From: Psychrobacter sp. DM4
GTDB lineage: Bacteria > Pseudomonadota > Gammaproteobacteria > Pseudomonadales > Moraxellaceae
Reading direction: 5' to 3'
Assembly: GCF_051307035.1 (NCBI RefSeq)
Contig: NZ_CP195536.1
Span: 390,001 to 422,000, forward strand
DNA: 32,000 nucleotides
Numbering within the stretch: the stretch's first letter is position 1; every line of letters begins with the position of its first letter. Shown here piece by piece: positions 2,214 to 27,626 of the stretch. The position numbers were made by a program, and so were the translations under genes. The notes beneath the pieces are model-generated. The model saw only the letters and a list, made by a program, of their open reading frames with translations, had not been told where the DNA came from and ran no database searches.

Positions 2214-3845
2214 ATGAACATCATTGAACATCTAGAACAGACGGTCAGCACTGTCGTCTTAGGCAATAGCATGGATGCTGCGCAGCTTAGTCTACTTGAG
2301 CAGTTTTACGCGATTTTGGCAACGCGTCTGTCCATGCCAAAAGTCTACTCAATGCTACTTCGCAGTGACCAAATTAATGTACCTGTTCATGAGGCTATTC
2401 ATGACTCTTTGTTTGAGCAGGTATGGCAAGACCCTCATGCCCGTCAAATTATTATCAAAGAATTGTCAGCCGCGCATCATATCAATGAGATAGTCACCAC
2501 GCAACTGCTGATCAACGCGGCACCTATCGCTTATCAAGCGCTTAATGATCATGCTAGTGGTCAGTTTTTGCCCGCCTATTTGCAAACGCAACAACCAGTG
2601 TTACGCCAATATCTACCAGTATGGTCAGCACCAGTTATCGCTGATCATCTTATAGGTGCGACTCCTGAGATTATAGTCTTACCCTCTTCGTCAGAGGTCT
2701 TAAATCCTGATACATCCTCAGTAGTTGGCCAATCAACAGTAGCTGACCAATCAGATTTTGATAATACAAAGAAAGATAAGAGCGTATTGCCTTTAGCAAC
2801 CGGTGTTGAGCAAGAGGCGTTCGTTGATACGGACGCCATCCATGCCAATCCCTCCAAGCATCATTATTCTGAGTATTGTGATTCTGAGCAAAATAAATCT
2901 GATTCTGTTCGTATAGCAAACAACCCTGAGCTCTTGACTACTCGACCCTTTAGAAAGGTACGCGCTCACAATATAAGCGTTCGAAAAATATCTTGGCTTA
3001 TATTTGCCTTAGCGGTATTAGCAGGAATAGGACTGACTTGGGCGCTAGTTATTAAGCCCAAGCAAGTCGTAGTAGATACTCCTGCGCCGCCCACTATGGT
3101 CACACCGACAGAAGAACCAGCGGCGATACCCTTAACGCCTATATCGATGATCGTAGGTGTTGATGATAGCGGTCAGCTATACACGTGTAACGCAACTGTA
3201 GGCAACATCACTATGCAAAATGCACTCATACAGGCGTTTAATGTTAGCTTCGGTGAGCAAGCTAGCACTTGTGAGGTTACCATTGCCGAGGGAGTCGCCA
3301 CTGGTTTATCTAATATGACGGTACAAAGGTTACCGGATATGTTGACTTTGCTTAGAGCAGTACCGTTTGCACGTTTACAATTACAGGATGAGCGCATTAT
3401 ATTAGAAGCGCCTGATGATATGCTGCTCCAGCAGCTCCTCGGTGATATGCGAATTATTGTCCCGACTATGCAGATCAATAGCGCCGTTCCCATACCTTTA
3501 CCTGACAGCACCGCTATAAATAATGAGAACACTATTATTGGTGTGGATAATGCTACTGGTATGAATAATTCGCTTGAAAATGAAGCTTTGACTAATCAGA
3601 GCAATAATGAGACGTCTAGTATAAATAATTATCAGCCTAATGATGATACTGGAGATAGAATTATCTCTGATCCATTGGGCAACAATATAGGTAATGATAT
3701 AGGAAGCAGTGCACAAAACCGTTCTCAAAATACCAATCGAGGCATAAGTCCTCTACCTACTGTACCAGCAGGTCCGATATCTGTGTCTGAAGTAGATGAG
3801 ATGGCAAGTAGAGAGATTAGAGTCGATCCGGTGAGAGCCAACTAG
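2214..3845 (+). CDS. Single-pass membrane protein, paralog of the downstream OmpA-family protein but lacking the OmpA domain; Asn/Ser-rich low-complexity C-terminus
   Basis: The N-terminus MNIIEHLEQTVSTVVLG...LLEQFYAILATRL aligns with MDIISHLTRTVSPAVLG...LLEQFYAIFAARL of the ORF at 4384. One TM helix is present (WLIFALAVLAGIGLTWALVI). A shared Cys-pair middle domain aligns too (LYTCNATVG...STCEV vs LFACRMNVG...DKCRA). GAGGA lies upstream of the ATG. Confidence 0.6.
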   Translation: MNIIEHLEQTVSTVVLGNSMDAAQLSLLEQFYAILATRLSMPKVYSMLLRSDQINVPVHEAIHDSLFEQVWQDPHARQIIIKELSAAHHINEIVTTQLLINAAPIAYQALNDHASGQFLPAYLQTQQPVLRQYLPVWSAPVIADHLIGATPEIIVLPSSSEVLNPDTSSVVGQSTVADQSDFDNTKKDKSVLPLATGVEQEAFVDTDAIHANPSKHHYSEYCDSEQNKSDSVRIANNPELLTTRPFRKVRAHNISVRKISWLIFALAVLAGIGLTWALVIKPKQVVVDTPAPPTMVTPTEEPAAIPLTPISMIVGVDDSGQLYTCNATVGNITMQNALIQAFNVSFGEQASTCEVTIAEGVATGLSNMTVQRLPDMLTLLRAVPFARLQLQDERIILEAPDDMLLQQLLGDMRIIVPTMQINSAVPIPLPDSTAINNENTIIGVDNATGMNNSLENEALTNQSNNETSSINNYQPNDDTGDRIISDPLGNNIGNDIGSSAQNRSQNTNRGISPLPTVPAGPISVSEVDEMASREIRVDPVRAN

Positions 3846-23855: not shown

Positions 23856-23892
23856 CGAGTTTGAATAATCTGTTATAACTTTATGATATAGA

Positions 23893-23926
23893 AAAGCCCA
23901 TCAAGAGTAGTCTTGGCGGGCTTTTT
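23893..23926. terminator. Bidirectional intrinsic terminator between the convergent symporter and barstar genes
   Basis: The stem aaagcccatcaaga (23893-23906) / tcttggcgggcttt (23911-23924) has a 2-nt internal bubble. T-runs are present on both strands. Confidence 0.7.
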
Positions 23927-24065
23927 GATGTTGATTACTTACTAGATATTTATTAAGCAGAGGCGTTATAGTTTGTGGGACGTAGAGATCAATAGAATGT
24001 TGTGACTTTAAAAACCACATTCAGTTTAATTGGATTAAACGGACTAAAAGCGATGACTACCTGTC

Positions 24066-24389
24066 CTATACTATTACCCACAACTGCGGCTTGCCAAAAT
24101 CTCTAAAAGCGTCCTCAATCATACTTTTAAAGCCGTTGAAATCTTCGGTATTAATCTTCTCTACCTCTGTCAAATCTAGCTTTAAATATTTGGCATCACT
24201 ATCCGTCAAGCAATCCCATGCGCTGTCCCAATTATGGGCAAAGTAATCAGGGAAGCTGAGCGCGATGCCTAACGCTGTTAATAATGCCTTTTTATCGAGC
24301 ACTTCCCCCATGATAATAGCGATAGCTTGCTTAGGTATAGAGCCATACTGAGCGTCGCTGTTGTCAATATAATAAATAGCCTGACTCAT
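24066..24389 (-). CDS. Barstar-family ribonuclease inhibitor
   Basis: The 107 aa ORF has the barstar signature FPDYFAHNWDSAWDCLTD. Its ATG lies 1 nt after the stop of the upstream ribonuclease gene (...AGATAAAATGAGT...). Confidence 0.85.
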   Translation of the reverse strand: MSQAIYYIDNSDAQYGSIPKQAIAIIMGEVLDKKALLTALGIALSFPDYFAHNWDSAWDCLTDSDAKYLKLDLTEVEKINTEDFNGFKSMIEDAFRDFGKPQLWVIV

Positions 24390-24390
24390 T

Positions 24391-25143
24391 TTATCTCACC
24401 TGTAATTGGCTAAAGCTGTCGTAGTGATCGACGGTTAAATAATAGACTGCTGGCGGATTGCCGCCAGTGACGATACGCCGCGCGCCGCGATGTGACACAC
24501 TAGGCGTGGGTACCGTATACTCGCGGTAGTAGCCACTGGGCTGCGCAGGTAAACGACCTTCACGATTATAAAACGTCGTGCCGTCTTTGGCAGGATGGGG
24601 GTAGGGGCCGCCACGCTTGATAAGTGCAATAGTATGATCAATTTGTACGTCACCAGTGATAACGTTTTGAGTGGCTGATTCTGATGACTGTGATGATTGC
24701 GATATTGTATTCGATTGAGCATCATCACCAAGAAACGTGGATGATAGGTCGCCAAAGAAATAAACCGCTAAGGCGATAATAGCGATGAGACTAAATAGAC
24801 GAGAGATAGGGCTGCTCTTTTTTTGGTTAATACGCCGCTGATTGTTATGGCTATTGCTGTTGTTGATATGGTTGTGACGGTTCTGATGAGGTGCGTTTTT
24901 AGCTAGTTGTGGTTGCAGCGTCTCTTGTAGGCTCAGTGAAGTAGAGGTTACCTCTGTGGCACGTAACTGGTTTTCGTCATTGCGCTCGCTATTGAAGTAG
25001 ACGCGCTGACCAATGCTGACAGGTTGAGACAAACGTACTCTAGTAATATGAAAAAACACATCCTCGCTTTGATCGTCTACATCGATAAAACCATAACCTT
25101 TATCCTCGTTCCAGTGCTTGATTTTACCACTTTGCATGAGCAC
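24391..25143 (-). CDS. Fusion protein: N-terminal cold-shock domain, one TM helix, C-terminal guanyl-specific ribonuclease (barnase / RNase Sa, N1/T1 superfamily)
   Basis: The CSD reads GKIKHWNEDKGYGFIDVDDQSEDVFFHITRV. The TM helix is LFSLIAIIALAVYFFG, preceded by RRINQKK. The C-terminus GGPYPHPAKDGTTFYNREGRLPAQPSGYYREYTVPTPSVSHRGARRIVTGG...VDHYDSF aligns with RNase Sa DGPFPYSQDGVVFQNRESVLPTQSYGYYHEYTVITPGARTRGTRRIICG...GDHYATF, including the catalytic Glu, Arg and His. Confidence 0.85.
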   Translation of the reverse strand: MLMQSGKIKHWNEDKGYGFIDVDDQSEDVFFHITRVRLSQPVSIGQRVYFNSERNDENQLRATEVTSTSLSLQETLQPQLAKNAPHQNRHNHINNSNSHNNQRRINQKKSSPISRLFSLIAIIALAVYFFGDLSSTFLGDDAQSNTISQSSQSSESATQNVITGDVQIDHTIALIKRGGPYPHPAKDGTTFYNREGRLPAQPSGYYREYTVPTPSVSHRGARRIVTGGNPPAVYYLTVDHYDSFSQLQVR

Positions 25144-25170
25144 GCTGTCCTATGGTTTTATGTTAAAGAT

Positions 25171-25199
25171 AGTATATACAATAGAATGGCATCGCACAA
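25171..25199 (-). promoter_or_regulatory. Candidate sigma70 promoter for the ribonuclease-barstar pair
   Basis: On the minus strand, TTGTGC (25199-25194) is followed by a 17-nt spacer and TATACT (25176-25171), about 28 nt upstream of the ATG. AGGA lies in the leader. Confidence 0.4.
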
Positions 25200-25226
25200 A
25201 AACGCCAGCGACTAGGCTGGCGTTTT
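25198..25226 (-). terminator. Intrinsic terminator of proA
   Basis: The stem cgccagc (25203-25209) / gctggcg (25216-25222) has loop gactag. A/T-runs flank it, and the minus strand reads tttttg after the stem. Confidence 0.75.
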
Positions 25227-25254
25227 GCATGTACATCGAATGACGAGGAATAAG

Positions 25255-26983: not shown

Positions 26984-27274
26984 ATGACTGCTACAGAGAA
27001 AAAAGCAAAACCTATCATATCCAAAAAATGGTTGTACGGCTCCCTAGTCGCATTGGCGCTAATTTGGGGTGTCTATACCAATAGTGAAGCTGCTAATACG
27101 AACTCAGCACTTGGTTCAGTAGAACAAGTGGAGATTGAAAATGACAATGATGATATAGATATCGTTACTGACATAGAAAATGATGCCTACAATAGCGATG
27201 ATGATACTGATGACGGTAATGATGAAGACTGGGGTTATGATTCCTTAGAAGATGATATGGACGATGAAGAGTAA
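26984..27274 (+). CDS. Small exported/anchored protein with extremely acidic Asp/Glu-rich C-terminus (hypothetical)
   Basis: AGGAG lies 7 nt upstream of the ATG. The ORF has an N-terminal basic stretch, a hydrophobic segment (WLYGSLVALALIWGVY), then DNDDIDIVTDIENDAYNSDDDTDDGNDEDWGYDSLEDDMDDEE. Confidence 0.5.
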   Translation: MTATEKKAKPIISKKWLYGSLVALALIWGVYTNSEAANTNSALGSVEQVEIENDNDDIDIVTDIENDAYNSDDDTDDGNDEDWGYDSLEDDMDDEE

Positions 27275-27299: not shown

Positions 27300-27626
27300 A
27301 TGAGTGATGACCTTATGCAGAAATCTATCTATAAAAACTTACTACTAGTGACCTTAGCCACTTCGGTATTGGCCTTGAGTGCTTGTGAAGACAAGGGTGC
27401 TAAAACCAGCGAAGAGGATCCAACCTATGATTCACAAACCCAGATTGAACAAGCTGCTACTGGCGTGGACAATGACATGCCAGCGAACGATGTCGCTATT
27501 GCCAGCGCCAATGATGGTGTCGCAATGGATAACGAAACCATAAATGACGATGTCGCTATCGCTACAGCGGATGACTCAGAGGTTCTCGATGGTAGCGAGT
27601 CATCAGAGCACGTCTCAACCTATTAA
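27300..27626 (+). CDS. Small acidic lipoprotein with internal NDVAIA-type repeats (hypothetical)
   Basis: A lipobox is present (VLALSAC). The repeated segments are NDVAIASANDG and DDVAIATADD. An alternative start is the ATG at 27315. Confidence 0.5.
   Translation: MSDDLMQKSIYKNLLLVTLATSVLALSACEDKGAKTSEEDPTYDSQTQIEQAATGVDNDMPANDVAIASANDGVAMDNETINDDVAIATADDSEVLDGSESSEHVSTY

Follow-up and report, generated by a model that had tools for sequence, protein, structure and literature searches.

The enzymes of the ribonuclease (RNase) Sa group are soluble, secreted proteins of about 96 amino acids (aa) with a cleavable N-terminal signal peptide, and both RNase Sa and the barnase-barstar pair are textbook models of protein folding and protein-protein recognition. 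The genes of barnase and of its inhibitor barstar are separate transcription units, and barstar in the cytoplasm inactivates the RNase that misses export. To our knowledge, hardly any work has addressed the biology of this RNase family in Gram-negative bacteria. Here we describe a pair of genes on the minus strand of a stretch of 32,000 nucleotides (nt) from Psychrobacter sp. DM4 (contig NZ_CP195536.1, positions 390,001 to 422,000; the whole stretch is called the window below). The first gene encodes a protein in which a cold-shock domain (CSD), a predicted transmembrane (TM) helix and an RNase Sa-type domain follow one another, and the second encodes a barstar-type inhibitor. The locus is a real, conserved architectural variant of this textbook pair of enzyme and inhibitor. 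Other genomes have it too, and its domains are already recognised by automatic annotation, in which pipelines call the fusion 'ribonuclease domain-containing protein' or 'guanyl-specific ribonuclease Sa/cold shock CspA family protein'.

All characterised relatives of the RNase domain are secreted soluble enzymes. The C-terminal 85 residues of the window protein are ~45-51% identical to RNase Sa, Sa2 and Sa3 of Streptomyces aureofaciens and share their fold, guanine loop and catalytic Glu/Arg/Arg/His, but the domain stands behind a CSD, a basic linker and an internal membrane helix. It contains no Cys, and the disulfide of RNase Sa is therefore absent. The likeness to barnase-barstar of Bacillus amyloliquefaciens lies in the combination of an exported RNase (here by prediction) with a cytoplasmic inhibitor whose interface residues Y29, D35, W38 and D39 are kept. 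Unlike that system, the two window genes are adjacent and only 1 nt apart, the RNase is predicted to be tethered and not released, and the barstar, with 107 aa, carries an N-terminal extension of ~20 aa.

Membrane-anchored or periplasmic nucleases with inhibitors or scavenging roles are also known, such as B. subtilis NucA-Nin, E. coli RNase I and Shewanella ExeM. They resemble the window protein in that a nuclease is held at or outside the cytoplasmic membrane, with the inhibitor gene directly downstream in the case of NucA-Nin, but they belong to unrelated protein families and none has a cytoplasmic CSD. The CSD-DUF1294 proteins of Proteobacteria combine an N-terminal cytoplasmic CSD with a membrane-embedded C-terminal part, where DUF1294 is a small multi-helix membrane domain without an extracytoplasmic enzyme. 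Membrane-tethered cold-shock domains thus recur; the window protein differs in having a predicted extracytoplasmic enzyme and no DUF1294 match in Pfam. The CSD-DUF1294 architecture is mentioned in PMC7404187. No description of a CSD-RNase fusion or of the present architecture was found in full-text literature searches, which yielded just two brief mentions of CSD-DUF1294 proteins.

Domains and predicted membrane topology

The initial annotation had read a CSD, a TM segment and an RNase Sa-type domain from the sequence of the first gene, and Pfam, a PDB sequence search, an AlphaFold2 model and Foldseek agreed on these assignments. The motifs quoted for them (KGYGFI, VFFH, RRINQKK, LFSLIAIIALAVYFFG, REYTV, HRGARR, VDHY and, in the neighbouring protein, FPDYFAHNWDSAWDCLTD) were all found. 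For the RNase domain, PF00545 was matched at residues 166-247 with 74.3 bits (cut-off 24, E 1.2e-20), and the PDB search returned RNase Sa3, Sa2 and Sa at E 1e-19 to 1e-16 with ~45-51% identity, while barnase and binase were matched weakly (E ~1e-3). Aligned with RNase Sa, Sa2 and Sa3, the domain kept the N-R-E of the guanine loop, the catalytic Glu in YREYTV, the Arg/Arg pair in HRGARR and the His-Tyr pair in VDHY, in keeping with the earlier claim that the catalytic Glu, the Arg cluster and the His are retained. In the AlphaFold2 model this domain was a compact alpha+beta fold with a predicted local distance difference test score (pLDDT) of ~95, for which Foldseek returned RNase Sa2/Sa3 at E ~1e-8 and a template modelling score (TM-score) of 0.72-0.85; the match to 1pyl_A had E 7e-9, a TM-score of 0.83 and a root-mean-square deviation of 2.1.

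We then compared 294 unique family members. The residues N191, R217, R221 and H238 of the RNase were unchanged in all 294, as were the Tyr and the guanine loop; in the CSD, the RNP residues F28 and H30 were invariant. The motif filter behind this collection demanded the β1 Trp, part of RNP1 (F17, I18) and Glu or Gln at the position of the catalytic Glu, and the conservation of those positions is therefore not independent evidence. The invariance of the RNase catalytic and CSD RNP residues suggests that both activities are under selection. In the canonical PF00545 layout, a small soluble enzyme follows a cleavable N-terminal signal peptide. Here the N-terminus is a CSD and the only hydrophobic segment is internal, and the departure from the canon lies in the architecture, not in the catalytic domain.

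The N-terminal domain matched Pfam CSD (PF00313) at residues 5-67 with 46.4 bits (cut-off 27, E 3.6e-12), and the PDB search gave Csp matches at E 2e-7 to 1e-5. The AlphaFold2 model showed five strands over residues 1-66 with pLDDT ~96, and Foldseek aligned the domain to CspB/CspE (TM-score ~0.83) and also to CspA, with TM-scores of ~0.8 overall. All NCBIfam Csp equivalogs (CspA, C, D, E, G) scored far below their cut-offs, the best being CspD with 37.3 bits vs 115.4, and the domain is therefore a diverged CSD rather than a stand-alone Csp orthologue. The NCBIfam model of the retron Se72 effector scored 26.6 bits, far short of its cut-off of 82. The CSD is predicted to lie in the cytoplasm. 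Purifying selection on its RNA-binding face is strong, which suggests that the domain has a role beyond anchoring the protein; most plausibly it would tether the protein to RNA at the membrane, perhaps to its own mRNA, and the basic linker beside it would raise the affinity for nucleic acid or for acidic lipids.

The product of the second gene had been called a barstar-type inhibitor without a signal peptide, and this was confirmed: Barstar PF01337 was matched with 47.3 bits (cut-off 23.4, E 2.1e-12), and the N-terminus was not hydrophobic. Barstar of B. amyloliquefaciens was matched at E 2e-4, with the equivalents of its four interface residues kept in PDYFAHNWDSAWDCLT, and the alignment to 1a19 and 1ay7_B read PDYF..NWDSAWDCLT. 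This interface motif was at least 90% conserved in 74 Psychrobacter orthologues.

As for the membrane segment, the hydropathy profile of the RNase protein had one peak only, at ISRLFSLIAIIALAVYFFG, with a Kyte-Doolittle value of 2.1 over 19 residues and RRINQKK on its N-terminal side, just as first described. In the AlphaFold2 model, built on a family alignment of 31 sequences, the helix at residues 111-132 had pLDDT ~77 and the linkers on either side (67-110 and 133-160) had pLDDT <50; the predicted TM-score (pTM) of the whole chain was 0.42, which would mean that the domains have no fixed packing against each other. The 15 residues flanking the helix contained on average 4.78 Lys/Arg before it vs 0.55 after it, with more on the N-terminal side in 295/300 members, most of which are from Psychrobacter and so not independent of each other. 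The net charge of linker 1 was +4.0 on average and positive in 286/294 members, and that of linker 2 was -2.25 on average, with S/T/Q/N/P/A/G making up 71% of its residues (294 members).

The nearest RNase relatives without a CSD are proteins of 130-165 aa in which the RNase domain comes last, after a short basic stretch, a hydrophobic signal or anchor and a spacer of low complexity. In the window protein, the internal helix therefore occupies the position of the export signal. Taken together, one ~20-residue hydrophobic helix, the positive-inside bias, the linker charges and this positional homology make a single-pass inner-membrane protein of type II (signal-anchor, N-in/C-out), with the RNase side in the periplasm, the most likely topology, which upholds what the positive-inside rule had been taken to predict. 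The simplest history would be that a CSD and a basic linker were added ahead of an exported RNase, whose signal thereby became an internal signal-anchor. Export by the twin-arginine (Tat) pathway was considered and rejected: between the RR of RRINQKK and the helix there is a distance of 12 residues, and orthologues such as P0121 do not share this RR.

Within the genus, segment identity was 0.82 for the CSD, 0.25 for linker 1, 0.75 for the helix, 0.37 for linker 2 and 0.81 for the RNase domain, and the protein therefore consists of three constrained modules joined by fast-evolving spacers. With 75% identity across Psychrobacter, the helix (24742-24807, minus strand) is close to the folded domains and far above the linkers (25-37%). 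It may make specific helix-helix contacts, for example in oligomerisation or with a partner.

Distribution and genomic context

A word-indexed search gave 1530 relatives. The combination of CSD and Ribonuclease was present in all of the best 120 of these, and the named ones were all Psychrobacter. Loci were also surveyed in one genome per species; the 80 that were recovered were all from Psychrobacter, and in 80/80 the gene of gamma-glutamyl phosphate reductase (proA-like, Aldedh family) lay upstream and barstar downstream, as in the window. Identity to the window proteins was 87-93% for ProA, 58-74% for the RNase protein and 54-77% for barstar.

We also searched 1.84 billion cluster representatives (50% identity) exhaustively, and obtained 1310 matches at E<=1e-10. 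The CSD-helix-RNase layout was seen in ~15 of these 1310 RNase-family clusters (~1%), in proteins of 197-278 aa, and the names attached to them were Cardiobacteriaceae, Geopseudomonas guangdongensis, Geopseudomonas aromaticivorans, Pseudomonas stutzeri and Pseudomonas sp. One further representative, P0123, had a CSD and a helix followed by two RNase copies; this is a metagenomic protein of 385 aa (locus L086, 3001-4158), and a single barstar gene overlaps its stop. The CSD-RNase architecture is thus rare in the family, patchy within the Gammaproteobacteria and old enough to have become a core gene of the genus Psychrobacter. It had been put forward as unusual for these RNases. The small share of clusters bears this out, but unique it is not, being fixed in one genus, present in other Gammaproteobacteria and already labelled by annotation pipelines.

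Outside Psychrobacter, barstar was found immediately downstream in 5/7 contexts, overlapping the RNase gene or separated from it by a gap of <=14 nt, and there was no conserved neighbour besides barstar in the 7 contexts. The barstar neighbour, first noticed in this one genome, thus recurs among homologues within and beyond the genus. Loci L081 (4001-4678; Cardiobacteriaceae, GCA_019218315.1) and L085 (3001-3639; Pseudomonas-like, GCA_965111655.1) both encode CSD-TM-RNase proteins with intact catalytic residues. At L087, which belongs to a subclade with an acidic flank before the helix, the gene pair adjoins a ParE/ribbon-helix-helix (RHH) toxin-antitoxin pair.

No full-length copy was found in plasmid and phage collections: phages gave no match, and plasmids gave matches to the RNase domain only. 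A search for defence systems with PADLOC returned a generic CSD_V match only, and none for barstar. A defence system or mobile toxin was rejected on these results, together with the fixed position after proA in 80/80 loci. Horizontal acquisition was likewise rejected, since the GC content of the RNase-barstar locus is similar to that of its neighbours and synteny was kept in 80/80 species.

Further away in the family, P0124, P0132, P0135, P0137, P0138, P0141, P0144, P0146, P0148, P0155 and P0177 were recovered as distant homologues. In many RNase Sa-family proteins of this kind, the signal or anchor is followed by RNase domains in tandem, two or three in number, and in several of the tandem proteins one copy is without the catalytic His (DHY replaced by DRF or DRY). 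This pattern suggests that the His-less copies may be pseudo-enzymes or RNA-binding domains beside an active copy.

Favoured reading and its competitors

The reading we favour is that of a membrane-anchored periplasmic RNase with a cytoplasmic CSD and with barstar as a safeguard. We consider this account of architecture, topology and safeguard probable, and are much less certain of any specific physiological role. According to it, the CSD and the basic linker would remain on the cytoplasmic side, with single-stranded RNA or DNA as their ligand, and the hydrophobic helix, once emerged, would be recognised as an uncleaved signal-anchor, so that the RNase domain is threaded across the membrane during translation. 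Because the anchor is synthesised before the RNase domain, export would be co-translational, and the enzyme would normally never fold in the cytoplasm. The RNase Sa-type domain would then fold in the periplasm as a competent guanyl-specific enzyme, held by ~30 flexible, Ser/Thr/Gln-rich residues that serve as a tether, and the tethered enzyme would cut periplasmic RNA after G without diffusing off. Barstar, made from the same mRNA and lacking an export signal, would stay in the cytoplasm and, by analogy with barnase-barstar, inactivate the RNase molecules that miss export. As for the role, the likeliest would be retained degradation of RNA that reaches the periplasm, that is, nutrient scavenging.

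Several observations weigh against this picture. Fused domains normally act on a common substrate; a single-span helix would instead put the CSD and the RNase in separate compartments. A subclade (P0150, P0323, P0325) has an acidic N-terminal flank, e.g. DADFDDESVERNGSD, and the positive-inside rule therefore does not predict the topology there. Two lineages, L081 and L085, had no barstar within 3-4 kb on either side. The positions preset by the motif filter of the member collection count here too. As to the role, scavenging is proposed by comparison with RNases that work in the periplasm or outside the cell, and no neighbouring gene supports it.

The alternative that survives best, which we regard as unlikely, is a secreted precursor, in which signal peptidase or another protease cleaves at the internal helix, soluble RNase reaches the periplasm or the medium, and a CSD-TM stub is left behind. 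It would bring the protein in line with its characterised, secreted relatives and with the hydrophobic N-terminal signal region of the relatives without a CSD, and the long, flexible linker 2 could hold a processing site. Against this, the residues that follow the helix of the window protein (GDLSSTFLGDD) showed no Ala-X-Ala-type site by eye, nor was a conserved one seen, and linker 2 is poorly conserved. The helix is moreover conserved in the genus beyond what a disposable signal needs, and a CSD with invariant RNA-binding residues would be pointless in a discarded stub.

Somewhat less likely still is a cytoplasmic pair resembling a toxin-antitoxin system. Here the helix would be peripheral or uninserted, the CSD would melt or recruit RNA for cleavage after G, and barstar would be the antitoxin: once it is lost, growth arrest or abortive infection would set in. 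Such a pair would fit with the usual common substrate of fused domains, and no N-terminal signal peptide is present; barstar is cytoplasmic, adjacent and tightly juxtaposed, and the CSD bears a weak resemblance to CSD effectors of retrons and defence systems (26.6 bits with the model of the retron Se72 effector; PADLOC CSD_V). However, ~20 uncharged residues with a Kyte-Doolittle value of 2.1 are a typical membrane span, the charge asymmetry around the helix is strong, and the relatives without a CSD carry their export signal where the helix lies. A core syntenic gene without phage or plasmid copies and without a specific defence-system match is also not what this alternative would lead one to expect, and the retron score remains far under its cut-off.

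Least likely of the three, and very improbable, is trans-membrane signalling, in which the periplasmic RNase senses or processes extracytoplasmic RNA and regulated proteolysis frees the CSD as an RNA chaperone or antiterminator, like anti-sigma factor cascades: the order of cytoplasmic nucleic-acid binder, one span and periplasmic domain is the layout of a single-pass transducer, and the CSD binding residues and the helix are conserved, but no protease or regulator gene lay in any context, where barstar was the only conserved neighbour, the invariant catalytic residues argue for an enzyme over a sensor, and no precedent was found in the literature.

There is a small chance, which we put on a level with that of the toxin-antitoxin-like pair, that the protein physically couples RNA on one side of the inner membrane to RNA on the other. 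The CSD may capture mRNA through its invariant RNA-binding face, holding its own bicistronic mRNA or the mRNAs of other membrane proteins at the membrane; if true, this would enforce co-translational export of the RNase together with local, stoichiometric synthesis of barstar. Alternatively, regulated proteolysis may free the CSD as a Csp-type regulator once the RNase in the periplasm encounters its substrate. If true, either version would put a CSD to a new use and give an exported, toxin-like enzyme a safety or sensing logic that is new.

The locus represents a conserved mode of enzyme deployment, with a predicted inner-membrane tether, an RNA-binding domain predicted in the cytoplasm and the inhibitor gene attached. 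If the predicted topology is true, it offers a defined system for the safe export of a cytotoxic RNase and for the ligands of a membrane-tethered CSD. It would also raise the question whether periplasmic RNA turnover is a core trait of Psychrobacter, where the pair was present in the locus of every species examined. A modest practical value lies in better annotation of some thousands of database entries, as 'membrane-anchored CSD-RNase Sa-type ribonuclease with barstar'. The locus would bear on a long-standing open question only if the CSD has a regulatory or mRNA-tethering role.

Gene layout and minor observations

The coordinates of the genes, signals and protein segments are collected in Table 1.

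Table 1 Features of the RNase-barstar locus, in positions of the window; residues follow the 248 aa numbering
Feature	Position	Strand	Description
CSD-TM-RNase gene	24391..25137	-	248 aa; ATG 25137-25135, stop TAA 24393-24391
Cold-shock domain, residues 1-66	24940..25137	-	Five-stranded OB barrel; RNP1 KGYGFI, RNP2 VFFH
Linker 1, residues 67-110	24808..24939	-	Disordered; basic; His/Asn/Gln-rich; net +5; contains RRINQKK; predicted cytoplasmic face
Transmembrane helix, residues 111-132 (ISRLFSLIAIIALAVYFFGDLS)	24742..24807	-	Predicted signal-anchor, N-in/C-out
Linker 2, residues 133-160	24658..24741	-	Disordered; Ser/Thr/Gln-rich; acidic, net -4; predicted periplasmic tether
RNase Sa/barnase-family (N1/T1 microbial RNase) domain, residues 161-248	24394..24657	-	PF00545
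Barstar-type inhibitor gene	24066..24389	-	107 aa; ATG 24389-24387; PF01337
Intrinsic terminator hairpin 3' of proA	25198..25226	-	AAAACGCCAGC-ctagtc-GCTGGCGTTTTT; -22.6 kcal/mol, z -5.1
5' region of the RNase gene	25148..25178	-	-10-like TATATACT 25171-25178; Shine-Dalgarno TAGGA 25148-25152; candidate promoter only
Bidirectional terminator-like hairpin between barstar (-) and the convergent Na+/alanine symporter gene (+)	23892..23925	.	Assigned by folding energy

The list of open reading frames (ORFs) on the minus strand contained both frames placed by the initial annotation, one at 24391..25143 (250 aa from a GTG) and one at 24066..24389 (107 aa). The length of 250 aa given for the first had to be corrected. 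The start kept across Psychrobacter orthologues is the ATG at 25137, from which a 248 aa protein is made, and the GTG at 25143, 6 bases upstream, was rejected as the start for lack of conservation. The 248 aa product is 100% identical to NCBI protein P0001 of Psychrobacter sp. DM4.

At the junction the DNA reads CAG GTG AGA TAA A ATG, and barstar does start 1 nt past the RNase stop, as had been stated, because of the order TAA-A-ATG. The Shine-Dalgarno (SD) sequence of barstar, AGGTGA at 24396-24401, lies within the end of the RNase gene, 6 nt 5' of the barstar ATG, while the SD of the RNase gene, 10 nt from its ATG, is weak and conserved across Psychrobacter. A weak SD for the RNase vs a strong one for barstar would fit an inhibitor made in excess over the enzyme.

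The pair had also been credited with its own promoter right after the proA terminator. The terminator part held: a T-run follows the hairpin, which is kept across Psychrobacter species and sets proA apart from the RNase-barstar unit. The promoter part did not hold to the same degree, since only an AT-rich, -10-like element that varies among Psychrobacter species is visible by eye, with a poor -35, and a consensus scan of 25144-25254 returned no sigma-70 site. Rfam gave nothing meaningful upstream, neither a cspA-like 5' untranslated region nor another RNA element. At the other end, the hairpin between barstar and the symporter gene folded with -17.3 kcal/mol (z -6.6) on the minus strand and -23.2 kcal/mol (z -5.6) on the plus strand. 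The pair is thus bracketed by strong terminators and therefore looks like its own transcription unit of ~1.1 kb, and the locus looks like a two-gene chromosomal operon.

Over the latter hairpin, at 23888-23961 on the minus strand, there was a weak Rfam match to the Listeria small RNA rli38 (25.9 bits vs a gathering score of 49, E 0.69), which is almost certainly due to chance. Elsewhere in the window, a 543 aa ORF on the plus strand (2214-3845), between the genes of a rhomboid protease and an OmpA-domain protein, matched no Pfam family at E<=0.001. Two small plus-strand ORFs (26984-27274 and 27300-27626) also had no Pfam match; the former encodes 96 aa, in which a hydrophobic segment at the N-terminus precedes a tail that is extremely rich in Asp and Glu.

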